A stretch of DNA of 64,000 nt from the NCBI GenBank assembly GCA_965140415.1, contig OZ223209.1, positions 3,360,001 through 3,424,000 on the forward strand, written 5' to 3'. Below are positions 7,762 through 26,750 of this stretch, one piece after another. This stretch comes from Myxococcota bacterium. Lineage in GTDB: Bacteria > Myxococcota_A > SURF-8. The position numbers and the translations under genes are program-made. Position 1 is the stretch's first letter. Each line of letters opens with the position of its first letter. A model generated the notes under the pieces. The model was given only the letters and a program-made list of their open reading frames with translations, was not told where the DNA came from and did not search any database.

Positions 7762-8901
7762 ATGAACGATGATATTGAAGTCTACAAAAAGAGGCTGGCG
7801 CTTGAAAAAAGTGCCCGTCTTCAAGCGGAAAAGATAGCCGAGGAAAACAGTCGTGAGCTTTATCTGAAGCAGGTCGAATTGGAGAAATCGTTCGCGGCAC
7901 TAGAGAGTACAAAGCTGGAGATCGAAACGCTGCTCAAAGCGTTGAAGGACTTCACAAACACTCTTGATCCATCCACCATTGTTGATCATCTACGCGGGTT
8001 CATTGAGGGAGAAATGTCCGAATTCATCGCGACCATTTCGGTTGTAGCGAGAGAAGAATCGGCGGGAATCAATTATCGTATGAATCCGGAAGGATGCCGC
8101 TCTATCGAGACCGACTGCAAGATTTTCTTCAGGTTAACAAGATTACACGTGGCCGAACTGGCTGGTTCTTCTTGTATCCTGAACGAAGTTGACGACGCAA
8201 TCCTGAAAGAGCTGAAAAGTCCTGCACCAACTCTGCTTGTTCCGTTGATCTCACATGGAATAGCAATCGGTTTTCTGGCAATACACGGCATGCAGGAAAA
8301 CTGCGATGCGACAAACATAAGGTTTTTCCAAGCGTTGGCTAATGAAGTGGCAGTATCTTTGCAAAATGCATTGCTTTACCGGGAAATCGACCGGCTTTCC
8401 AGAATTGACCCTCTGACGGGACTTATGAATCGCCGAAGCTTTACAGTTTCGGCAATCAGGTTTTTGCAACTTGCCATCCGGTATAACAAACCTCTATCGG
8501 CAGCGATGCTGGATATCGATTTCTTTAAAAAGGTCAATGACACTTACGGTCATGCGATGGGTGATGACGTTTTGAAAAGCGTGGCAAAAACCTGCGAAGG
8601 CCTCATTCGCCGATCGGACATTGTCGGGAGGTTTGGTGGAGAAGAATTTTGTTTCCTGTTTCCGGAAACAGCAGTCGAAAGCGCCAGTTTGTTAGCCGAG
8701 AGAATCCGGGTTGCCATATCGAGTCTGACCTTTGAATCCGAAGGGCAAAACTTCCAAGTGACAGCCAGCATCGGATTGGCTGAGTTGCACGGTGAAGCGG
8801 ATTCCCTTGAAACCATGCTTTCTCGAAGTGATGAAGCGCTTTATCAAGCCAAGGAGAGCGGGCGTGATAGGGTTGTGGTGTGGAATGAGAAGACAAAATG
8901 A
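7762..8901 (+). CDS. GAF-containing diguanylate cyclase
   Basis: DPLTGLMNRR, DIDFFKKVND, and an RxxD I-site followed by GGEEF. Confidence 0.92.
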   Translation: MNDDIEVYKKRLALEKSARLQAEKIAEENSRELYLKQVELEKSFAALESTKLEIETLLKALKDFTNTLDPSTIVDHLRGFIEGEMSEFIATISVVAREESAGINYRMNPEGCRSIETDCKIFFRLTRLHVAELAGSSCILNEVDDAILKELKSPAPTLLVPLISHGIAIGFLAIHGMQENCDATNIRFFQALANEVAVSLQNALLYREIDRLSRIDPLTGLMNRRSFTVSAIRFLQLAIRYNKPLSAAMLDIDFFKKVNDTYGHAMGDDVLKSVAKTCEGLIRRSDIVGRFGGEEFCFLFPETAVESASLLAERIRVAISSLTFESEGQNFQVTASIGLAELHGEADSLETMLSRSDEALYQAKESGRDRVVVWNEKTK

Positions 8902-8951
8902 AGAATTCGACTGTCAAGTACTGTTGTACCTCCTTTCCCATAACGAACAGT

Positions 8952-8979
8952 AAAAAAAAGGAAGAGGCGGTCCTCTTCC
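8952..8979 (-). terminator. Intrinsic terminator closing the Ubl-E2-JAB operon
   Basis: Minus strand GGAAGAGG-ACCG-CCTCTTCC-TTTTTTTT, 9 nt after the JAB stop. Confidence 0.85.
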
Positions 8980-8988
8980 AGTTATTTG

Positions 8989-9843
8989 CTATCTGGATTG
9001 ATAATTAGCCGCTTTATCAACATACAGATATTCCCCCAGCACCTGCAGCACCGACCACGGATCGATCACCCGGACATCGCCACCGAGAATACCGTCCAGG
9101 ATGACCCAGAACTCGTCCAGGTCGCCCTGCCAGTCCTCGACGGCGTCAAGCAATTCCGCCGCTTGGTTGGGGTTCAGGCCGACCAATTGCAGTTCGGTGA
9201 AGATATCATCGTTGTCATCGGGCGTTGCGTTGCTGGTGTGTTCGGTGAATCGGCGATCCAGTCCAAGTTCAAGTTCCTCATCCGGCCAGACCAGTCCCCA
9301 GGGCGCGGCGGGTGCGTGGACCTTGTCGCGCAGCTCTTTTTCCAGCGCCTCGTCACGTTCCACGCTGGCCAGGAAGCCCACCTTGATCTGATCGACCGTG
9401 ATGCGCCAGGGATGGTACAGGTCCAGCCGGGCGCGGAAATGTCCGGCCTTGTTCGTGACGATGCTGACCAGCCAGTCGTCGTTACTCATCTGCTCGATGG
9501 TGTCGGCATCTTCCGAGGACCAGAAGCAGTTCATGTCGGCATGGCTGTGCGCCCAGCAGCGCAGGTCGGACACGTCGTATCCGACCTTGACCAGTTCCGT
9601 CATCAGCGCGCCCATGCTCTCGCGGTCAGGGCTGGTGTGGGAATCCGTGCAGGTCTGCTCCGGCAGGAAGAAGGTTTTCACGACGATGGCTCCGCTGTCT
9701 TTGTCAACTTCTGTCACACCGAAGCAGGAAAATTCTCCCCGCGCCGCCTGCGTCCAGACACGCAATTGCCGCTCCGCCTCATCCGACAACAACACCTCCG
9801 GAATCCGGTTCGTCAGCTTCCGCTTCGTCTCCGTCGGTTCCAT
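8989..9843 (-). CDS. JAB/MPN+ metallopeptidase (deubiquitinase-like)
   Basis: Upstream Glu (GEFS) and WAHSHADMNCFWSSED = H-x-H-x7-S-x2-D. Start re-placed at MEPTETK; the longer ORF call runs through the E2 gene's 3' end. Confidence 0.85.
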   Translation of the reverse strand: MEPTETKRKLTNRIPEVLLSDEAERQLRVWTQAARGEFSCFGVTEVDKDSGAIVVKTFFLPEQTCTDSHTSPDRESMGALMTELVKVGYDVSDLRCWAHSHADMNCFWSSEDADTIEQMSNDDWLVSIVTNKAGHFRARLDLYHPWRITVDQIKVGFLASVERDEALEKELRDKVHAPAAPWGLVWPDEELELGLDRRFTEHTSNATPDDNDDIFTELQLVGLNPNQAAELLDAVEDWQGDLDEFWVILDGILGGDVRVIDPWSVLQVLGEYLYVDKAANYQSR

Positions 9844-11311
9844 CGTCCTGGTCTTCTTCATCTTCATCTTCATCTTCGTCGGCCCAGGCGCTGCACTCGG
9901 ATCGGTGTGGGCAGTCCGGGCATTCGGGTTCGTTTCGTTCACGGCAATCCTCCTCATTTTCGGGGTGTAAGGCGCACCATTCGCGGTGGCACTGTAAGCA
10001 TTCGTAAGGTCCGCCATCGTTGCGGCAATCGTCGCGCACATCGTCCAGGAAGGGGCAGCGCGCATCGCCGCAGTCCAGGCAGTCCCGCGGAGAGCTGCCA
10101 TCGAAACAACGGCTGTAACGCTCATCCCAATACGGGCAGTCCCGGTCGTTGCAGTCCGTGCAAGTGGCTTCGCCGCCCTCGTAGCACTCCTCGTACTCGT
10201 CGCGCTCGCTGTCGAACCACTGCGTGTACGGGTCCAGCGGGTTGTAGGACATCAGGAATTCGTCGAGCAGCAAGAGCAGCATGCCCCATTCTCTTTGCGC
10301 CATGAGCTTGTTGACATCGTCGCCGATGTTGCCCAGGCACGGGCTGCCTTCCGTGCTGATGTGCGGGTGGAAGTAGTTCGATCGCCACTCGTTGTTGCCC
10401 GCCGGCTCGAACCGGATCAGCTCCTTGCCGGTCAACTCGATACGGCAGCGGATGTCGCCCAGTTCCGAGGTTTCACCACTGTCCGGGTCTTCAATCTGCA
10501 CGTCGGTATGCACGGCCACCAGCTCCGTGTCGCTGATGCTGATGGACTGGAAGCGCTCGCCCACGAGGGACTGCAACTGCTGGCTGATGCGCTTAACCGC
10601 ACTCACCGTGCGTCCGCATTTCTCGTTGACGGCCAGACGGAGCAGACGTTCCTCTTCTCGCTGGCGCCCCAGCTTGGCCACGAGCTGATGGTACTGGCGG
10701 TTCAGTTCGAGCAGGTTGGCTTCGTTGTCGCGGATATCCTGCTGGGTGCGCTCCAGACTCTGGCGCGAGAGGGCACTGTAGAAGCTGCCGAAGCGGCGCG
10801 TGGTCTCGACCGGATTGGGAGTCCGCATGGCATTCCGGCAAGCCCAGTCGAAGCCGTCCTTGAAGATGCTCGTCAGCAGGGCGCGCTTGGCTCCGAAGGT
10901 GACTTCCGTACCGTTCGAAAAGCGAATGCTGCCCTCATCGATGCGGGCGATGTAGAGCGTGGATCCCTCCAGCGTCCAGGCGCCGTGCGTATACGGCACC
11001 TGGAGATCGGGGCCCTGCGCCATCGGTAGCCAGCGTTTGCGGTCTTCGTTCAAGAGCTTTCTTTTCCTGCCGGTCACCGCCGCGTTGACCGGCGCCATGT
11101 AGAAGCGGTAGTCGCCATCCAGAGCCGTGACCTCGTATTCGCGGCTGGTGATGATCGTTACCACCGGTCCGAGCGTGTACGCCGCATCGCTTCTGTCGTC
11201 CTCCTTCACCTGGACGATGGGGCGTTGGTCGGCGGGGAAATCGAGCAACCACTCCTGCATGAGCGCCCGAAGGATCTCCGCAATGCGGGTGGAGTCGTTG
11301 AGATGTTCCAT
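9779..11311 (-). CDS. Multidomain E2/UBC-like protein: N-domain, coiled coil, E2-like core, four Cys4 repeats, acidic tail
   Basis: YFHPHISTEGSPCLG matches the UBC HPN-x6-CL active-site pattern; GGAGG RBS before ATG at 11311; lies between Ubl and JAB genes. Confidence 0.75.
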   Translation of the reverse strand: MEHLNDSTRIAEILRALMQEWLLDFPADQRPIVQVKEDDRSDAAYTLGPVVTIITSREYEVTALDGDYRFYMAPVNAAVTGRKRKLLNEDRKRWLPMAQGPDLQVPYTHGAWTLEGSTLYIARIDEGSIRFSNGTEVTFGAKRALLTSIFKDGFDWACRNAMRTPNPVETTRRFGSFYSALSRQSLERTQQDIRDNEANLLELNRQYHQLVAKLGRQREEERLLRLAVNEKCGRTVSAVKRISQQLQSLVGERFQSISISDTELVAVHTDVQIEDPDSGETSELGDIRCRIELTGKELIRFEPAGNNEWRSNYFHPHISTEGSPCLGNIGDDVNKLMAQREWGMLLLLLDEFLMSYNPLDPYTQWFDSERDEYEECYEGGEATCTDCNDRDCPYWDERYSRCFDGSSPRDCLDCGDARCPFLDDVRDDCRNDGGPYECLQCHREWCALHPENEEDCRERNEPECPDCPHRSECSAWADEDEDEDEEDQDDGTDGDEAEADEPDSGGVVVG

Positions 11312-11324
11312 GTAACCTCCTGAC

Positions 11325-11361
11325 AAAAAGTGAACGGCGGAAGGTTTCCCCTCCGCCGCTC
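11325..11361 (-). terminator. Terminator/attenuator-like hairpin between Ubl and E2
   Basis: Minus strand GCGGCGGAGG-GGAAA-CCTTCCGCCGT then TCACTTTTT. Confidence 0.6.
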
Positions 11362-11382: not shown

Positions 11383-11652
11383 CTACTGGTGGGCTACCGC
11401 ACCGCCGTCGACCTTGGGCGTCAAGGCGACGATGTCGCCATCATCGGGCCGCTCGTGGAGCTGGGTGTGGACACCGTTCAGGGTCGCCATGTAGCCTTCG
11501 CTCTGAAAGCCCGCCGCGAGGAGGGCGTCGGCGATTGTGCTGCCTGCGGGAATGGTGGTAGCTTTCTGCCTGCCGATCGAAACGACGGTGACGCGGATGC
11601 CGGGATTGCGGTTCTGGGACTGCTGGTCGTGGTTCTGGTTCTGGTCGTTCAT
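11383..11652 (-). CDS. Ubiquitin-like beta-grasp protein (ThiS/MoaD-like) with a 5-aa extension after GG
   Basis: 89 aa; ...GSTIADAL...LNG...DGDIVALTPKVDGG|AVAHQ; GGAGG RBS. Confidence 0.85.
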   Translation of the reverse strand: MNDQNQNHDQQSQNRNPGIRVTVVSIGRQKATTIPAGSTIADALLAAGFQSEGYMATLNGVHTQLHERPDDGDIVALTPKVDGGAVAHQ

Positions 11653-11697: not shown

Positions 11698-11722
11698 CAA
11701 AAACGCCGCCTCGTGGGCGGCT
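11698..11722 (-). terminator. Terminator-like hairpin between the SSB-like gene and Ubl
   Basis: Minus strand GCCGCC-CACGA-GGCGGC-GTTTTT. Confidence 0.65.
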
Positions 11723-11757: not shown

Positions 11758-12516
11758 CTACTCGGCGCTGTCGCCGTTCTCCTCGTCCCCATTGGGCTGA
11801 ATGACGCTGCGCAGGTTCTCGAAGATAGTCTTGAACTGCCGGATTTCCTGCTCGTTGCAGTCTTCTTCCTTTTCGAGTTGCAGGACGGCATACGTGCCGC
11901 TCGGCATGGTGAGCGAGAGCCGGGTCTTGGCGGTGAACAGCGGTAGGTCGGCGCGATGACCGTCGGGGAGTTGGAGCTTGCCGAGGAAGTGACGCGCCAG
12001 ATAGCGCTGCACGGGTCTGCGCGACGTGGCTTTGGCGCGGATGATGAAGGGGTTCTCATCGTCCAGATCGAGGCCGAGCAGCGTATATACAATATCGCAA
12101 TCCGGAGCGCTGGCTTGACCGTTATTGCGCCCCCACAATCGATGCGGACAGTTGGCGCAGTCCACGACCTCGCCGTCGGTGCGGACGCCTTCCACGCCGT
12201 CATCCGAACGGCAGTGCTCGGTCATACCGCTGGTTTCCGAGTAGGTTGCCCATCGGCGGGACTTTTTGATGTGGAGCAGGACGCAACTGATTTCATCCTT
12301 CGCCTCGCCTGTCAGCGTGTTGACGAACACATTCTTCGGCACCCAGGAACCGTCCGGTAGGCGGCGTTTGGTGTTGTAGGCGAAGGAAGGTAGCGGCCGA
12401 TCTTCATTGTCCAGATGGGACAGAGCCTGAAGACCGGCCAGCTCGGTGATGAGGGATTGGGGGATGGGGAGATTCGGCGCGGTCGGCGCCGGCGGGGAAT
12501 GGGTATTCTGGGTCAT
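11758..12516 (-). CDS. Phage-type Zn-binding protein, possibly single-stranded DNA-binding
   Basis: CRSDDG...CANCP..WG......PDC four-Cys pattern recalled from phage replication modules; acidic C-terminus; GAGGAG RBS before MTQNTH. Confidence 0.5.
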   Translation of the reverse strand: MTQNTHSPPAPTAPNLPIPQSLITELAGLQALSHLDNEDRPLPSFAYNTKRRLPDGSWVPKNVFVNTLTGEAKDEISCVLLHIKKSRRWATYSETSGMTEHCRSDDGVEGVRTDGEVVDCANCPHRLWGRNNGQASAPDCDIVYTLLGLDLDDENPFIIRAKATSRRPVQRYLARHFLGKLQLPDGHRADLPLFTAKTRLSLTMPSGTYAVLQLEKEEDCNEQEIRQFKTIFENLRSVIQPNGDEENGDSAE

Positions 12517-12591
12517 GGCGTTTCTCCTCTGTGAAATTGGGATAGGAAGTAGGAATGGCATTGCGCGACGCCTTCGGGAGCGTGATCGTCA

Positions 12592-16731: not shown

Positions 16732-19700
16732 CTATTTCTCCGCCCAACTTGTTCCGATACTACATTCCACCAATCCTTTGACACTCGCATCAGGGAAGAT
16801 ATCCAGCATTCCCTCCATCATCACTTCGGCGAGGATCTGCTGCACCTCCTCGACATCGCCGGCGTCCGCCTCGACAATCAGCTCATCGTGCACCGCACCA
16901 ACCAATGAGGCATTCACTCCGGATTCATCCAACTTGGCTGTCAACCGCGCCATGGCGGCGTACAACACCTCTGCCGCACCGCCCTGGACCTGATAATTAA
17001 AGACCCGGAATGGGGTCAACTCCCGCGCACCGAACACAATCTCCCGACCGGCTGGAGTGCGTACCGAGTTCGATTGTTTGGCCTGCCGGAGCGCTCTCTG
17101 ATGCCAGGAAGCAAAGCCAGGATAGGACTTGAACCAAGCCTCCCGGTGCTGCCTGGCCTTTTTAATACTCATCCGAACGCCGTAGGTCTGTTCTGCATAT
17201 TTCTGAAGCCCCTTAGCCGACATCCCGAACAGAAGGCCGAAATTGATCGCCTTGGCTAACTGGCGTTCCAATTTCGTCACCTCCGAAGGGTCCTTATCCA
17301 GCAACATCGCCGCCGTCATCGTGTGGACATCCACACCGTGTATGTAAGCCTTCAGCAGAATGCTTTCAGGGGCAATATGGGCTGCGCTTCGCAACTCCAT
17401 CTGTCCGTAGTCGGCAATGACCAGTTGGCGGCCTTCATGGGCAACAAACAACCTGCGGAACGCTGCTTCTCTCGGCATGTTTTGCAGATTCGGCTTCGAG
17501 CAGCTCATGCGCCCGGTGATGGCCCCGGCCAGCCTGAAATCCGCATGGATCCTCCCCGTCGTGGGGTGCAGGTGTTCGATCAGACCCTTGCCGTAGGTAG
17601 AACGCTGCTTGGCCACGTCCCGATAGGGAAGGAGAATGTCGCTCACGACGGCCCGTGCGTCCTTGGAAAGCAACGGCAACCCCGCCTGCAGCTCGGCAGC
17701 TCCCAGTTTCAGCCCGCCCCCCGGAGTCGTCGGCCACTGCGCCAAAGCCTTTTTCCCGCTCTCTTTCAGCTTCGAAGCCACCCACTCTCCTAGTTGTTTG
17801 GTGCTGTTCGGGTTCCGCCCACCCAGGGCCTTTTGCAGCTTGGTCCGAAGCTGAGCCTCTCGTTCTCCCACATCAGCCATCAAGACGGCGTGCGCGTCTC
17901 TTTCAAAGGCCATGCCGGTCAGGCACATCTGTACCACAGCCGGTTGTGCGCCGATGACAAGATCGTAGGCGCGCCGGCTGTCCCGGCTTTCGACTTCTGC
18001 CTCAATTCGCTCGAACAAACGTCGGGTGACCTCGGCGTCCTTGGCGGCGTAGGCCAGTTGTGTGTCCGACATCTCTCCACTCCAGTCGGATTTCTGAAGG
18101 GTCTTGTCCACGGTCTCACCCAGCCAGTGCCCCACGGCATTTTCCAACGAGGCATGCTCGCCGGTGACCAGGTGGTGACCGAGCATGGTGCAGTCCAGGT
18201 TGACGGAGATGCCCGCAGCCTTCAGCATTCCCATGTCGAACACGGCGTTGTGCGCGATGCCGCGGATCTGTCTCAACGGCTCCCGTACGGCTCCGAGCCC
18301 ACCGATCTTGTCCACGTCCAGCACAACCACCGGCCCGTCCTCCGGCGCCAACTGGACGAGCCGAACTCGATCCAGGATGGGATCAAGCCCCGTGGTCTCC
18401 ACGTCCAGGCCGACCCGCTGACCCGAATCCGCCAGTTCGCCGATGACCCGACGCGCCTCGTCTGCGTCCACGATCAGCGTGTAATCGATGCCGGACGGTG
18501 CGTTCGTAGACTCGATCCGGTCGGAGACCGCTCCCATACTCTCCGTCGAACGGGGCGTGGTCGGTGGGACTGATTCCGGATCGTAATCGATCATCTGCCC
18601 CGATTCATCCCCTACCAGCATCTCCATCTGCGGCAAGGCCTCTCTTAACGCCTGGCCGAGATCTGCGATCTCAACGGTTCCGTCTTGCGAGTGATCACCG
18701 CAATTACGATTGAAGCCATGCACCTCCACCTCCTCCAGCCTGTGCCAGGCCTTATGGGCGTAAAGAGCGACGTCGCCGGTCATACCACGATGCCGCACAA
18801 GGGAGAGCCGCACCCGACCGCCCGCTCCTGGACCGAACCGGGGGTACTGCTGCTCCAGTTGCTGGATATGCCGAAAACAGGCCTGTGCCCGTGTTTCGTC
18901 ACCACGCATCCGGGCCTGATGACCGACAAACTCCCAGGGGTCAATAGCCACCTGCGTTGTGTTCTCGCCTTTGCCTTCCTTCACGTAGACCACCTGTGTT
19001 TGCATGGTGAGGAGGCCGTCCGCGGCATGCGCGATCGCCAGGCTGTCGCGCGCTGAATTTACATCGATTTCGCCCTCCTTGTTTGCCTGCCGTTCTGCCT
19101 CCTTTGTCGTAGATGACAGCGCAATCACCACCGCACCCGTTTTACGCGCAAGATCTTTACAGGCCACGGCGAGATTAGTGACTCGGGTTGTCGTGTCACC
19201 GTATCGGTCGAGCTGCTCGACCCCAGTGCGCGCAAGTTGCAAATAATCGATTACGACGATCGGCGTTTTATCGGGATGCTGCCGACGAACACGGCGAACC
19301 CATGCTCCGGCATCTGCCAACGTCGTCTCCAGACCCGCCTCCCAGATTTCGAGGAACTGACCCTCGTTCTGGAGATATTCAGTCAGGCCTTTGGTGAAAA
19401 CCGCTACCTCCTCGCGGTCCAGCAGCTGCATCTCGACCCGGCGGGAGTTCATTCCAAGCTTGCGCGCCATGGCATAGATCATCATCTGGTGCATGGCCAT
19501 TTCGTAGCCAACGTACAAGGCGGGAGTGCCATTCGCCGCCGCATGATCGAGAGTCTGCGCTGCGAGTGTCGTTTTCAATCCCTTGGGCGGCGCAACGATG
19601 ACGTACAGCCGCCCTCCATGCCAACCGCCATGGAGTAGGCCGTTCAATCCCTCGAACGGCGTGGGGATAACGGCGTTGGTGTCCCGCGCAAACAGCTCGA

Positions 19701-21279
19701 CGATCCGGGCCTGCTGCTGGGCGAGTGGACCGTGTTGCCCTGTCTCGATCAGGCAACCCTCCAGGTTATGCTGGAGCTGGTGGACCACCGCAGCCGCTGA
19801 CGGGCTGCTATCACCGGAGTTCGCCTCCGATAGAACCTGATGCACACGATACCGCCGCTCGAATTCCAAGGCCCGCTGGTATGCCGACATTCCTGATTCC
19901 GGGCTGTAGGGATGGTCTCGCAATTGCGCCATGAATCGCTCCACGTCCTCTACCAGCGCGTCCCGGTGTTGAGCAATACTCCGCTCCGCGATATCACAGT
20001 CGAGTTCCCGATAAACCGCCGCTGATGTCAATCCGCCATCGGTCATGGCCCGGGCCATCAGAGCTGCCGGGCTATAGGTCACGGTGATTTCGCCGTTCGA
20101 CTCCAGGGAGTGATCCGGCCAGACGTGCTCCAGTCTGTGAACCGGAAGGCCATCTTCCATGGCGGACCGGAGCAGGTCGAGGGCGACGGGAGGTTCGATC
20201 TGCCGCAACCCGGATTCAGACACGGACGGCGGAGGCCATTCGTCCGTCCGCGCCGGGCAGTCCTGACAACTGAAATATTCCCGCCAGCCCTTCATTTTTC
20301 GCGGGTAATCACAACGGAAATCGTCGCTGTGGTTCGAGAAGAAATTTTTGATCTTCCCATCGAACGTCTTGATGCTCGGGTGATCCTCAGAGGCCTCGGC
20401 CAGTTTGGTCGCCAGGTACCGGGATGCCTTCTTATCCAGTCCCCTCGAGTGCGCATATTTCGCAAGATTTAGGTTGGCCTTATCGTAGTCGTACTCATGG
20501 GACGATCCGTGTTCCAACATGGCGTCGATGCAGGGCGGGTGCTCGTACTCCGGTAGTTTCGACCAGTCTGGTTTGACAGAAGGCCCGGACTGCTTCGGCT
20601 CCCGGAACCCAGTCGCCTGCGCTTCTTTCCGGATCCGGTCGTGGGCCTGCCGGAACGGCGCCACCGTCACCACCTCGGTCCGCGCCAGCAGCGAGATCTG
20701 CTCATCCAGGTCCGGTGGATCGTCGAAGCCCGTGAGGGGCGCGCTGTCGGAGTACCCAGCCGGGTCCAGATACGCCGACCACAACCCCGATCCGCGATGC
20801 TTGCAGACCGGCAGCTTCATAACCGCCTGCGCCGCCTTGGTCGGGACCGCCGTATCGGGCCGGACATCGATGTGCCCTGCGCCGGGACAAGCCACATTGA
20901 GCAGATGTTTAAGAAAGGCCTGCAATTGCCCCGCCGGCACCGGTTCCGCAAGGCAGAAATCAAGGCCGTAGCCCTTGCGCCCGCTGTTGCAAACCAGAGG
21001 TGCGGGAAGGCCCAGTTCCTCTATCTTCCGCAGAACTGCCTGGACCAGAGGCCATTGATCCGCACCGCCGTCGAAATCGAGACGACCCACCCGACAGGTG
21101 CTCTCCGGTCCAACGATGTTCAAGGCCGCCGTCTGCTCACCGCGAAAATGGGCGCGCAGGTCGTTCTCGGCGATCGGTTCATCGCGGGGAATGTAGGCCT
21201 CGCCGTCCTCGCTCTGGAAATGGACTGGCTGGCTGGGCACCAGGTATAGCCGGTCTACGTGTTCAAGCAGTTCTTTCAT
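16732..21279 (-). CDS. Primase (AEP-like) - DnaB-like SF4 helicase - 3'-5' exonuclease - family A DNA polymerase fusion, 1515 aa
   Basis: LDFD and SGRKGY (AEP); PPC...C...CxxC; APPKGLKTT and VVIDYLQL (helicase); LDVET, HNAVFD, YAAKD (exonuclease); ADYGQMELR, AKAINFG, VHDEL (PolA motifs A/B/C); AGGAGGAG RBS before MKELL. Confidence 0.88.
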   Translation of the reverse strand: MKELLEHVDRLYLVPSQPVHFQSEDGEAYIPRDEPIAENDLRAHFRGEQTAALNIVGPESTCRVGRLDFDGGADQWPLVQAVLRKIEELGLPAPLVCNSGRKGYGLDFCLAEPVPAGQLQAFLKHLLNVACPGAGHIDVRPDTAVPTKAAQAVMKLPVCKHRGSGLWSAYLDPAGYSDSAPLTGFDDPPDLDEQISLLARTEVVTVAPFRQAHDRIRKEAQATGFREPKQSGPSVKPDWSKLPEYEHPPCIDAMLEHGSSHEYDYDKANLNLAKYAHSRGLDKKASRYLATKLAEASEDHPSIKTFDGKIKNFFSNHSDDFRCDYPRKMKGWREYFSCQDCPARTDEWPPPSVSESGLRQIEPPVALDLLRSAMEDGLPVHRLEHVWPDHSLESNGEITVTYSPAALMARAMTDGGLTSAAVYRELDCDIAERSIAQHRDALVEDVERFMAQLRDHPYSPESGMSAYQRALEFERRYRVHQVLSEANSGDSSPSAAAVVHQLQHNLEGCLIETGQHGPLAQQQARIVELFARDTNAVIPTPFEGLNGLLHGGWHGGRLYVIVAPPKGLKTTLAAQTLDHAAANGTPALYVGYEMAMHQMMIYAMARKLGMNSRRVEMQLLDREEVAVFTKGLTEYLQNEGQFLEIWEAGLETTLADAGAWVRRVRRQHPDKTPIVVIDYLQLARTGVEQLDRYGDTTTRVTNLAVACKDLARKTGAVVIALSSTTKEAERQANKEGEIDVNSARDSLAIAHAADGLLTMQTQVVYVKEGKGENTTQVAIDPWEFVGHQARMRGDETRAQACFRHIQQLEQQYPRFGPGAGGRVRLSLVRHRGMTGDVALYAHKAWHRLEEVEVHGFNRNCGDHSQDGTVEIADLGQALREALPQMEMLVGDESGQMIDYDPESVPPTTPRSTESMGAVSDRIESTNAPSGIDYTLIVDADEARRVIGELADSGQRVGLDVETTGLDPILDRVRLVQLAPEDGPVVVLDVDKIGGLGAVREPLRQIRGIAHNAVFDMGMLKAAGISVNLDCTMLGHHLVTGEHASLENAVGHWLGETVDKTLQKSDWSGEMSDTQLAYAAKDAEVTRRLFERIEAEVESRDSRRAYDLVIGAQPAVVQMCLTGMAFERDAHAVLMADVGEREAQLRTKLQKALGGRNPNSTKQLGEWVASKLKESGKKALAQWPTTPGGGLKLGAAELQAGLPLLSKDARAVVSDILLPYRDVAKQRSTYGKGLIEHLHPTTGRIHADFRLAGAITGRMSCSKPNLQNMPREAAFRRLFVAHEGRQLVIADYGQMELRSAAHIAPESILLKAYIHGVDVHTMTAAMLLDKDPSEVTKLERQLAKAINFGLLFGMSAKGLQKYAEQTYGVRMSIKKARQHREAWFKSYPGFASWHQRALRQAKQSNSVRTPAGREIVFGARELTPFRVFNYQVQGGAAEVLYAAMARLTAKLDESGVNASLVGAVHDELIVEADAGDVEEVQQILAEVMMEGMLDIFPDASVKGLVECSIGTSWAEK

Positions 21280-21490
21280 CGTCTCCTCCTTCACGAGAGA
21301 GTAGGCCCGCAGCAACGCCACCACGGCGCGGCGCGGTGAATAGGCCTATTCTCCCGCGAGGGGGAGGCCGCCCGCCACGGCCCCAGACGGGAGCGGCGGA
21401 CTCACCCCCTCTTGGGGGTTCTTTAAGATACTTGGGCGCTCGTGGCCGGACAGATGTGACCTGATTTCAGTTGGTTACAGGATCGGGCGC

Positions 21491-26631: not shown

Positions 26632-26668
26632 AAAAACAGCCACTCACGAAAACTCGTAAGTGGCTGTT
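26632..26668 (-). terminator. Hairpin downstream of tRNA-Pro
   Basis: AACAGCCACT-CACGA-AAAC-TCGT-AAGTGGCTGTT inverted repeat with a T-run on the minus strand. Confidence 0.7.
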
Positions 26669-26673
26669 ATTAC

Positions 26674-26750
26674 TGGTCGGGGCGACTGGATTTGAACCAG
26701 CGACCACCTGAACCCCATTCAGGTACGCTACCAGACTGCGCTACGCCCCG
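26674..26750 (-). tRNA. tRNA-Pro(GGG)
   Basis: CGGGGCG acceptor stem, anticodon arm CCTGA-ATGGGGT-TCAGG, GGTTCAAATCC T-arm, CCA end. Confidence 0.96.

Follow-up and report, generated by a model that had tools for sequence, protein, structure and literature searches.

To our knowledge, work on bacterial Ubl conjugation has dealt either with host defence, as in CBASS (Cap2/Cap3) and Bil, or with operons whose role is unknown (Bub). In the Bil systems, the JAB of the operon trims the Ubl after a conserved Gly, as described in the accessible part of the report (10.1101/2023.09.26.559546). Prokaryotic E2/E1/JAB/Ubl gene clusters of classes 6a–6e, including the PRTRC-type 6d, were defined in 2006, according to the available sections of that paper (Iyer, Burroughs and Aravind, 2006; PMC1779556). 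In animals, UBE2O has the layout CR1-CR2/CC/UBC/CTR, where CR1-CR2 bind the substrate, and it works independently of an E3, in the excerpted text of the source (PMC12835413).

Here, we describe a protein, E2C4, whose gene lies in a 64,000-nucleotide stretch of contig OZ223209.1 from a Myxococcota bacterium; the whole of this stretch is referred to as the window. We assign a probability of about 0.6 to the reading that E2C4 acts as the conjugating enzyme (E2) in a Ubl tagging system of four parts on phages and integrative elements; in this reading, the chemistry, metal binding, the identity of the metal, what the tail does and dimerisation are parts that we infer. The E2C4 family stands apart in three respects: among E2 types, its core comes nearest to the classical eukaryotic one, its carriers are mainly uncultured phages and integrative elements, and it has no model in the protein-family libraries searched. 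If active, it would offer a compact system to study E3-independent target choice by an E2, and could reveal how a mobile element benefits from protein tagging. The array of Cys4 repeats may represent a new fold for metal binding.

The E2C4 gene, its neighbours and its mobile setting

All genes of the window described here are on the reverse strand. In the program-made ORF list, the ORF containing E2C4 spans 9779..11326. The gene likely starts at ATG 11311, which is preceded by GGAGG, and ends with a stop codon at 9779–9781, giving a protein of 510 aa; the span 9779..11311, proposed by a sequence-only reading of the window, is exactly that of this gene. The last 62 coding bases and the stop codon of E2C4 overlap the start of a JAB/JAMM peptidase gene (8989..9843, about 284 aa), assigned by its H-S-H-x7-S-x2-D motif, which can be read directly from the sequence. 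The start of the JAB gene is placed at the Met of MEPTE, common to most homologues, and an alternative ATG is found at 9873. The JAB protein of the window has no Pfam match, and its relatives in the loci L007 and L010 match Pfam Prok-JAB weakly.

Upstream of E2C4, a ThiS-like Ubl of 89 aa is encoded at 11383..11652, with GGAGGA preceding its ATG at 11652. Its ThiS matches are sub-threshold, with E 2.3e-4 and 22.1 bits in Pfam (cut-off 22.5) and E 4.5e-6, below the cut-off, in NCBIfam. The C-terminus of this Ubl is VDGG followed by AVAHQ, namely five residues past Gly-Gly, and the homologues have one to five residues after VDGG. The placement of E2C4 between a ThiS-like Ubl and a JAMM peptidase is in support of the sequence-only reading. 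Further upstream lies p267 (11758..12561), a conserved partner recognised by its co-occurrence and by a match to phrog_23155 (E 3.8e-7): it accompanies Ubl-E2C4-JAB in L001, L002, L003, L005, L006, L034 and L036, and its nearest Atlas clusters are 96–97% viral. At the other end, a consensus scan found a terminator-like hairpin at 8960..8979, just after the JAB stop, with 8 pairs and a T run on the reverse strand, marking the end of the module.

The setting is a mobile element. A full HMMER scan collected 481 clusters of the E2C4 family, mostly from uncultured phage contigs and MAGs, and a word search gave 12 E2C4 homologues. No family model matches E2C4 in Pfam, NCBIfam, PHROG and PADLOC scans; for 63 relatives, the Pfam scan gave single weak matches only and the PHROG scan none. 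A tblastn search of GenBank phages and PLSDB plasmids produced no match. In a search for an att site near 8800–9100, no repeat of the tRNA end was found there, and such a repeat is present 62 kb away. A full-text literature search lacking most subscription journals returned no description of an E2 with Cys4 repeats or of a phage-borne E2C4 family.

Domains of E2C4

E2C4 consists, in this order, of a beta-rich N-terminal domain, a helix of about 60 residues, a UBC/E2 core, four Cys4 modules and a disordered acidic tail, and its AF2 model has a mean pLDDT of 87.5. By profile and model comparison, the core (residues 229–370; 10202..10627) has the UBC/E2 fold and, at its active site, an HPH...Cys motif, which bears out the E2-like core noticed from the sequence. 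The profile of the 63-member family matches UBE2L3 in the PDB (E 6.2e-4), and in this alignment the family HPH falls on HPN and the family Cys on the catalytic Cys. Fold-search scores are modest. With the E2C4 model, Foldseek against the PDB gave no row at E <= 0.001, and among the matches listed all are E2 entries (prob 0.92–1.00, best E 5.7e-3); in VIA, ranks 1–16 are all E2s, with 113–125 residues aligned over model positions 223–372 at Z 6.8–7.7, which stays below 8, in the range that VIA calls common. The motif itself, YFHPHISTEGSPCLGNIG, occupies residues 315–325 (10337..10369), where alignment shows H315, P316, H317 and C325, together with G327, to be invariant in 63/63 family sequences, HPH replacing HPN in every one of them; in the 13-sequence homologue alignment, all catalytic residues of E2C4 are kept. 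Pfam UQ_con (PF00179) does not match E2C4 at E <= 0.1 and the family is below its gathering threshold, a single one of the 63 relatives giving a match (E 0.0024). A PDB sequence search with E2C4 alone gave chance-level rows only.

Coiled-coil-like helices (residues 136–228; 10628..10906) precede the core. AF2 places helices at 139–162 and 167–228, and residues 164–230 align in VIA to solved coiled coils at a Z of about 6.5, in line with the coiled-coil-like stretch that had been noted there. Because most family matches in the full HMMER scan start at query residues 175–195, the distal helix is family-wide. The N-terminal domain (residues 1–135; 10907..11311), with its AF2 strands within 32–121 at a pLDDT of mostly 81–95, is by sequence comparison specific to its own lineage; among the 150 representatives listed, three (P0001, P0010 and P0013) align from before residue 90. 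As a candidate for target recognition, this domain is at least as good as the Cys4 tail.

The Cys4 modules (residues 376–473; 9893..10186) start right after the last UBC helices, at a conserved SYNxxxPYxxW motif. Four stretches fit the pattern C-x7/8-C-x2-C-x4/5-C, namely residues 376–392, 402–419, 429–446 and 456–473; their spacing is C7C2C4C -9- C8C2C4C -9- C8C2C4C -9- C7C2C5C, and they take up 16 of the 20 Cys of E2C4. At least three matches were obtained in 0/200,000 composition-preserving shuffles of residues 371–480, and at least two in 0/50,000 shuffles of the whole protein. All 16 module Cys are invariant in 13/13 close homologues, at identities down to 26%; when 63 family sequences are aligned, conservation still reaches at least 90% at 13 of these positions. 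Furthermore, the modules have a dN/dS of 0.03–0.12 in five pairs, against 0–0.16 for the UBC core, and purifying selection on them is as strong as on the E2 core. The four tandem repeats seen in the sequence are thus beyond chance, and the question raised with them, whether homologues conserve them, is answered in the affirmative. Such conservation under purifying selection is as would be expected for metal ligands.

Since family members carry 2, 3, 4 or 5 modules, the cysteines come in multiples of four in clean cases. Among family members, the last gap within a module has a length of 2 to 6 residues, and the x9 between modules is the most constant spacing, which also fits metal sites bridging neighbouring modules. 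L039, a natural deletion variant with five Cys missing, is compatible with within-module and bridging sites alike. Each module would most likely bind one metal ion via its own four Cys.

A model of the tail only is all-helical, with a pLDDT of 76. Modules 2–4 have a pLDDT of 88–94 in the full-length model and a lower one in the tail-only model, which suggests that they pack on the core. When the tail-only model (pLDDT 76) was compared with 48,161 chains by VIA, the best Z was 3.4 and 14 chains had Z >= 2; Foldseek with the same model, which is of middling confidence, returned one row, TAZ2, at a non-significant E of 8.5 (prob 0.03). Neither search pointed to a known fold. Used as a query for longer proteins in a word-index search of limited reach, the tail found only 6 close E2C4 homologues. 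A RING or eight-ligand C3HC4 cross-brace was rejected, as there are four separate, regularly spaced Cys4 units without a conserved His ligand; with the all-helical prediction and no RING or zinc-finger Pfam match in 63 members, this is not a RING finger, in keeping with the original remark on the spacing. The 4Fe-4S ferredoxin motif is CxxCxxCxxxCP. A ferredoxin-type 4Fe-4S domain was also rejected, since the spacing differs and neither E2C4 nor its 63 relatives have a Fer4 Pfam match, a result that bears on this kind of Fe-S site only.

The acidic tail (residues 474–510; 9782..9892) is delimited by charge and pLDDT. Residues 481–510 have a net charge of −16 and residues 484–509 a pLDDT below 50, in agreement with the D/E tract reported earlier; residues 371–480 carry a net charge of −23. 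The dN/dS of the acidic tail is 0.24–0.87, with dS lowered. Across the family, tails with at least three modules have net charges of −10 to −48 in 53/53 cases.

Proposed tagging route and rival explanations

In the proposed route, the JAMM peptidase would trim the five residues past Gly-Gly of the ThiS-like Ubl, and probably it also removes conjugates. A small ThiF-type E1 (220–235 aa) with an invariant Cys would then adenylate the Ubl, which would be handed to Cys325 of E2C4 as a thioester. Because no E3 gene is present, E2C4 itself would transfer the Ubl to targets, as E3-independent E2s such as UBE2O do. The target would be chosen by the lineage-specific N-terminal domain, and the long helix may pair two E2s, a dimerisation that we infer. 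Behind the UBC core and packed on it, a compact and very acidic domain of helices only would be made rigid by the four metal-bound Cys4 modules. Together with the acidic tail, this domain would provide an accessory surface for docking or regulation, whose partners are probably basic.

Relatives in the same kind of operon bear on the role of the C-terminal extension. Both E2s of L007 lie inside a Ubl-E2-JAB-E1 operon and have no Cys tail, and the E2s of L009, L010, P0142 and P0087 carry different cysteine arrays. Such relatives either have no tail or have one of a different type; the tail is therefore an accessory module outside the catalytic core, and it cannot be needed for contact with E1, Ubl or JAB. 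The sequence-only reading had named dispensability of the repeats as a point against its E3-like proposal: judging from the tail-less L007 E2s, the tail is dispensable for the basic chemistry of the family, but this does not extend to E2C4 itself. An E3-like or substrate-binding role of the tail would be plausible. A bolder version, which we hold tentatively and with the odds against it, is that the array is a new metal-organised, strongly acidic helical fold, by which a Ubl system of phages and mobile elements has its E3 or substrate receptor built into the E2; the array could also be a nucleic-acid mimic. If the built-in E3 were true, the element would tag basic host proteins (DNA-binding, replication, defence) without a separate ligase, and the differing cysteine arrays on related E2s would be interchangeable targeting heads.

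There are other explanations for the array. It may be only a structural cap for a divergent UBC core, with targets chosen by the N-terminal domain or by others such as p267; a cap would suit an array that begins directly behind the last core helices, that is modelled with higher confidence in the full-length protein than alone, and that changes type while the operon partners stay, in a protein whose lineage-specific part is the N-terminal domain. This alternative is doubtful, however, as the tail-less L007 E2s indicate that the core can exist capless, the extreme negative charge in all 53 tails exceeds the needs of a cap, and the number of modules varies between 2 and 5. As for the metal, structural Zn is favoured over Fe-S. 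The [4Fe-4S] loop of EndoIII/MutY is C-x6-C-x2-C-x5-C, the WhiB and FNR motif is CxxCx5C, and ferredoxins are strongly acidic. The module pattern is close to the former two, the array domain is strongly acidic like the latter, modules 1 and 2 end in Cys-Pro, and each module consists of one CxxC and two single Cys, not of the paired knuckles usual in zinc ribbons. If the four modules each bound an Fe-S cluster in place of Zn, the E2 would be redox- or O2-sensitive, or an electron-transfer scaffold, with conjugation switched by the cluster state. We consider this unlikely: no Fer4 or other Fe-S Pfam model matches any of the 63 members, the VIA and Foldseek searches of the tail-only model found no ferredoxin, HiPIP or EndoIII-like match, the last gap is variable, and in relatives the array is replaced by arrays of CxxC pairs, as is typical of zinc ribbons. 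The E2 of L008 matches Pfam Zn_ribbon models.

The last rival concerns the module as a whole. The usual operon of the family contains Ubl, E2, JAB peptidase and a small ThiF-type E1, the E1s sharing GxGxxGS, an invariant Cys-Thr and a length of 220–235 aa. In the window, Ubl, E2 and JAB are adjacent, and the cognate E1 (C1:3345583–3346290) lies 22.7 kb further downstream, outside the window. Because the operon has no E1 and a terminator-like hairpin follows JAB, it may rely on an E1 gene at another site, or be a decaying remnant with a detached E1, in which E2, Ubl and JAB conjugate nothing. Among 19 distinct loci with readable downstream DNA, E1 directly follows JAB in 8 (L003, L007, L008, L009, L029, L030, L031 and L039); the 11 loci without an adjacent E1 would fit a remnant, as would L004, which has neither Ubl nor p267 by tblastn. 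Yet the genome of the window contains three intact E2C4 copies with a whole-gene dN/dS of 0.11–0.14, and five full, intact copies of the cognate E1 gene, one of which is located downstream of each E2C4 copy on the same strand, at 11.4, 22.7 or 27.4 kb. With every catalytic residue kept as well, decay is very improbable, and E2C4 as the E2 of a tagging system is preferred.

Comparison with known systems

The best profile and structure matches of E2C4 are canonical E2s, such as human UBE2L3 (UbcH7) and UBE2D, with which it has in common the UBC alpha/beta fold and an H-P-x followed by the catalytic Cys about 8 residues on. Unlike them, E2C4 has HPH for HPN, stays below the Pfam threshold, adds the N-terminal domain, the long helix, the four Cys4 modules and the acidic tail, and is encoded on a phage or mobile element beside a ThiS-like Ubl and a JAMM peptidase. 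For the extension, two known arrangements are comparable. In TAZ1/TAZ2 of CBP/p300, helices are tied by repeated four-ligand zinc sites; these are three HCCC sites, whereas E2C4 has four Cys4 modules, and no homology is implied. The other is the acidic C-terminal tail of the E2 Cdc34, which binds to a basic partner as its docking site.

In the order of its parts, E2C4 resembles UBE2O as laid out in the excerpted source: the N-terminal region, which binds the target in UBE2O, is followed by a coiled coil, by UBC and by an additional domain at the C-terminus. The likeness is a functional analogy only, as no sequence relation was found outside the UBC core and the C-terminal region of UBE2O is not a Cys4 repeat array.

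[quoted passage not shown] According to the same sections, they differ in their E2s, since the E2-like protein of 6d is without the classical His, 6a–6c have E2-E1 fusions and that of 6e is without Cys; neither a coiled coil nor Cys4 repeats are described there for any class. Against PRTRC_ThiF, the E1 of the E2C4 system reaches 41.7 bits, short of the cut-off of 144.75. Compared with the accessible description of BilABCD (Type I/II), the Bil E2 has a Cys with a nearby downstream His (CEHH) in place of HPx...Cys, the E1 of Bil is large and has two domains, with a CYS domain, against 220–235 aa here, and BilB is presented without cysteine arrays or a coiled coil; PADLOC and NCBIfam gave no Bil-type match for E2C4. 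What the two systems share, in the part of the Bil report at hand, is a four-part kit of Ubl, E2, JAB and E1, with a Ubl that carries residues past its Gly.

An E2 core in an unannotated protein

E2C4 has a real and strongly conserved architecture and carries a repeat array without a known fold match; it is found in a family of operons for the conjugation of ubiquitin-like proteins (Ubl) that is unannotated and for the most part viral. Its minus-strand open reading frame runs from 11326 to 9779, and a start at ATG 11311, preceded by GGAGG, gives a protein of 510 aa, in exact agreement with the gene (9779..11311) called in the sequence-only reading. No model of Pfam, NCBIfam, PHROG or PADLOC matches E2C4, and Pfam UQ_con matches only one of 63 relatives (E 0.0024). 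The family profile, in turn, matches human UBE2L3 in the PDB (E 6.2e-4), with HPN aligned to HPH and the catalytic Cys to a Cys. In a Foldseek comparison with the PDB, the AlphaFold2 model of E2C4, built from a 63-sequence alignment (mean pLDDT 87.5), gave E2 entries in all rows listed (probability 0.92-1.00; best E only 5.7e-3), and VIA-align placed nothing but E2s in ranks 1-16 (Z 6.8-7.7), with 113-125 residues aligned across model residues 223-372. Because these three independent lines agree, the core, already described as E2-like from the sequence, is accepted as having a UBC fold whose active-site motif is an HPH variant, despite the modest scores.

Upstream of the core, the model predicts a beta-rich domain (residues 1-135) followed by helices at 139-162 and 167-228. 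Solved coiled coils match residues 164-230 (VIA-align, Z about 6.5), in line with the coiled-coil-like stretch noticed earlier. Among the 150 representatives listed by HMMER, only P0001, P0010 and P0013 align from before residue 90, and most alignments start at residues 175-195. This makes the N-terminal domain lineage-specific, in contrast to the distal helix, UBC core and tail, which span the family.

The Cys-rich tail

The four Cys4 modules (C-x7/8-C-x2-C-x4/5-C) seen in the sequence-only reading are found at residues 376-392, 402-419, 429-446 and 456-473, with the full spacing C7C2C4C-9-C8C2C4C-9-C8C2C4C-9-C7C2C5C, and their 16 Cys are among only 20 in the whole protein. At least three pattern matches occurred in none of 200,000 shuffles that kept the composition of residues 371-480. 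The D/E tract reported behind the modules is likewise present, with a net charge of -16 over residues 481-510 and pLDDT below 50 for residues 484-509 of the full-length model.

Conservation in homologues, on which the idea of a built-in functional module had been staked, is strong: a word-indexed search found 12 homologues, and all 16 module Cys are invariant in 13/13 sequences including E2C4, down to 26% identity, as is the HPH...G.PCLGNIG stretch. An exhaustive HMMER scan over 1.84 billion cluster representatives extended the family to 481 proteins at E <= 1e-3 (71 at E <= 1e-10). In the 63-sequence family alignment, H315, P316, H317, C325 and G327 are invariant, and 13 of the 16 tail Cys are at least 90% conserved. 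Over five pairs drawn from three own-genome paralogues and two orthologues, dN/dS is 0.03-0.12 in the Cys region versus 0-0.16 in the UBC core, indicating equal constraint; in the acidic tail it is 0.24-0.87, with lowered dS.

Among 96 family proteins with the HPx...C.G motif, 43 have four modules, 30 none, nine two, eight three, four one and two five. Units of C-x2-C-x7-C-x3-C take their place in P0087, P0094, P0095 and P0160, seven C-x2-C-x6-C-x-C units form the array of P0142, and the viral loci L009 and L010 have CxxC-pair arrays on the E2. A net charge of -10 to -48 is seen in all 53 tails with at least three modules. The sequence-only reading had held dispensability of the repeats against its own proposal, and at the family level 30 of the 96 proteins are without them; both E2s of locus L007 end directly behind the SYN..P..W motif and have no Cys there. 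Since module number and type vary and the L007 E2s are without a Cys tail, the Cys4 array, though conserved where present, is an exchangeable accessory of the E2 family. Tandem E2 paralogue pairs lie ahead of the JAB/JAMM peptidase (JAB) gene at L007:664-3407 (no Cys tail on either) and L010:4008-6177 (CxxC-pair arrays on both). In the metagenomic relative L039:2629-3975, a deletion has taken out module 2 together with the first module 3 Cys, so that 11 Cys are left; decay of this copy or an artefact of assembly may account for it.

Structure prediction, proposed earlier as a check of the tail, gave pLDDT 88-94 for modules 2-4 and about 69-76 for module 1 in the full-length model. Modelled on its own (136 residues, 71-row alignment), the tail is predicted to be all-helical, at pLDDT 76; no solved structure matches it among 48,161 chains (best VIA Z 3.4), and the sole Foldseek row is p300 TAZ2 (E 8.5). 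The predicted secondary structure puts the first Cys of each module within a helix and its CxxC where the following helix begins, a placement that would fit one four-Cys site per module. The x9 between modules is the most constant spacing across the family, against 6-12 for the first gap, so that sites bridging neighbouring modules are also possible.

For the putative Cys4 sites zinc is favoured, because of the prior for such sites and because relatives carry arrays of zinc-ribbon type. Fe-S clusters are a live rival, since each module has a single CxxC and its spacing resembles the [4Fe-4S] loops of EndoIII/MutY and WhiB. The favoured reading of the tail is an acidic domain for docking or regulation, which four structural metal sites would build.

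Operon partners, E1 genes and mobile setting

Upstream of E2C4 lies a ThiS-like beta-grasp Ubl gene (11383..11652), matching NCBIfam ThiS (E 4.5e-6, below its cut-off) and Pfam ThiS just below threshold (E 2.3e-4). Its product ends in ...VDGG plus AVAHQ, and orthologues in ...VDGG plus 1-5 residues. The JAB gene (8989..9843), with the JAMM motif H-S-H-x7-S-x2-D read from its sequence, follows downstream, and its start conserved among homologues, the Met of MEPTE at 9843, lies within the E2C4 acidic tail in another frame, giving an overlap of 65 nt. The lowered dS of the acidic tail fits this double coding. Over 9779-9873 (-), the D/E codons GAnGAn shifted by one base give ATG AAG (M K M K M K K). 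Further upstream is p267 (11758..12561, -), a member of the phage protein family phrog_23155 whose nearest Atlas clusters are 96-97% viral. It accompanies the Ubl module in close relatives, the order p267-Ubl-E2C4-JAB recurs in Myxococcota-labelled MAG loci, and it could be a target or adaptor of the module. Terminator-like hairpins with T runs flank the Ubl gene at 11332-11361 (-, 13 pairs) and 11705-11721 (-, 6 pairs), and another (8960-8979) stands behind the JAB stop; they suggest that read-through from the Ubl to the E2 gene is attenuated and that the operon stops short of any E1.

No ThiF gene is found within the window operon. In more distant relatives, a ThiF-family gene of 220-235 aa, the small E1, stands directly behind JAB. 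Of 19 separate loci in which the DNA beyond JAB could be read, E1 adjoins it in eight (L003, L007, L008, L009, L029, L030, L031, L039) and is not adjacent in 11 (the window, the two other copies of its genome, L001, L002, L004, L005, L006, L010, L034, L035). For this count duplicates were merged (L024=L002, L025=L001, L026=L003, L027/L033=L004, L028=L006, L042=L009), and L032, L036, L037, L038, L040 and L041, with too short downstream DNA, were left out. GxGxxGS is common to the small E1s, as is an invariant Cys-Thr, and they reach no NCBIfam cut-off. The own genome has five full E1 copies, 81-83% identical to the L003 E1, and three E2C4 copies (100, 83 and 81% identity to that of the window), and each E2C4-JAB copy has one E1 downstream on the same strand, at 22.7, 11.4 and 27.4 kb respectively. 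The genome thus holds the whole Ubl kit, in separated parts. E1 adjoins a DUF2958 gene; this cassette is present five times in full and once in part, at C1:3345583-3346685, about 14 kb before the window, and at four other places.

The Ubl module closes a GC-richer block (about 0.59-0.62 vs 0.48-0.53 flanking), which also contains a D5-type primase-helicase, small sigma-like and HTH genes, and a 1530-aa fusion of AEP-type primase, DnaB-like helicase, 3'-5' exonuclease and family A DNA polymerase (PolA; 16732-21324, -). A tRNA-Pro (26674-26750) adjoins the block, and an 82-bp direct repeat of its 3' part (26640-26721) recurs, 97.6% identical, 62 kb apart at C1:3324264-3324345, beside genes for a tyrosine integrase, AbiEi/AbiEii and McrBC. 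On these grounds the region resembles a composite island at a tRNA hotspot. Outside the window, two more element copies (C1:2767668-2775592 and C1:5397487-5413588) hold JAB, E2C4, Ubl, p267, a sigma-like gene, p82, three HTH genes and an IS481-like gene, the latter copy additionally having the PolA fusion, p536, p133 and the D5 primase. Most of the proteins are 70-96% identical, those of two HTH genes only 36-38%. Because the HTH and IS481-like genes recur there, they are fixed element parts and not a chance insertion. Of 301 genomes sampled from the phylum, 18 carry E2C4 family matches, often in multiple copies. The nearest Atlas clusters are 73% viral, and in BFVD the best matches by structure fall on uncharacterised phage proteins 400-540 aa long; no match was found among GenBank phages or PLSDB plasmids.

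A possible cascade and known systems

We infer the entire chemistry of a proposed cascade of standard type as follows: JAB would trim Ubl beyond Gly-Gly, the small E1 would adenylate it, Cys325 of E2C4 would carry it, and E2C4, since no E3 gene is present, would pass it to targets unaided. In the literature, with subscription journals partly covered, no description of the E2C4 family was found. The operons of Iyer et al. 2006 (PMC1779556) and the Bil operons (10.1101/2023.09.26.559546) are related, but the accessible text of neither source describes an HPx-type E2 with a coiled coil and Cys4 repeats. For Bil systems, JAB trimming after the conserved Gly is shown in that text (10.1101/2023.09.26.559546). 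According to the accessible portion of another report (PMC12835413), UBE2O consists of CR1-CR2, a coiled coil, UBC and a C-terminal regulatory domain, binds its substrates through CR1-CR2 and needs no E3; as far as described there, its domain order is the same as that of E2C4.
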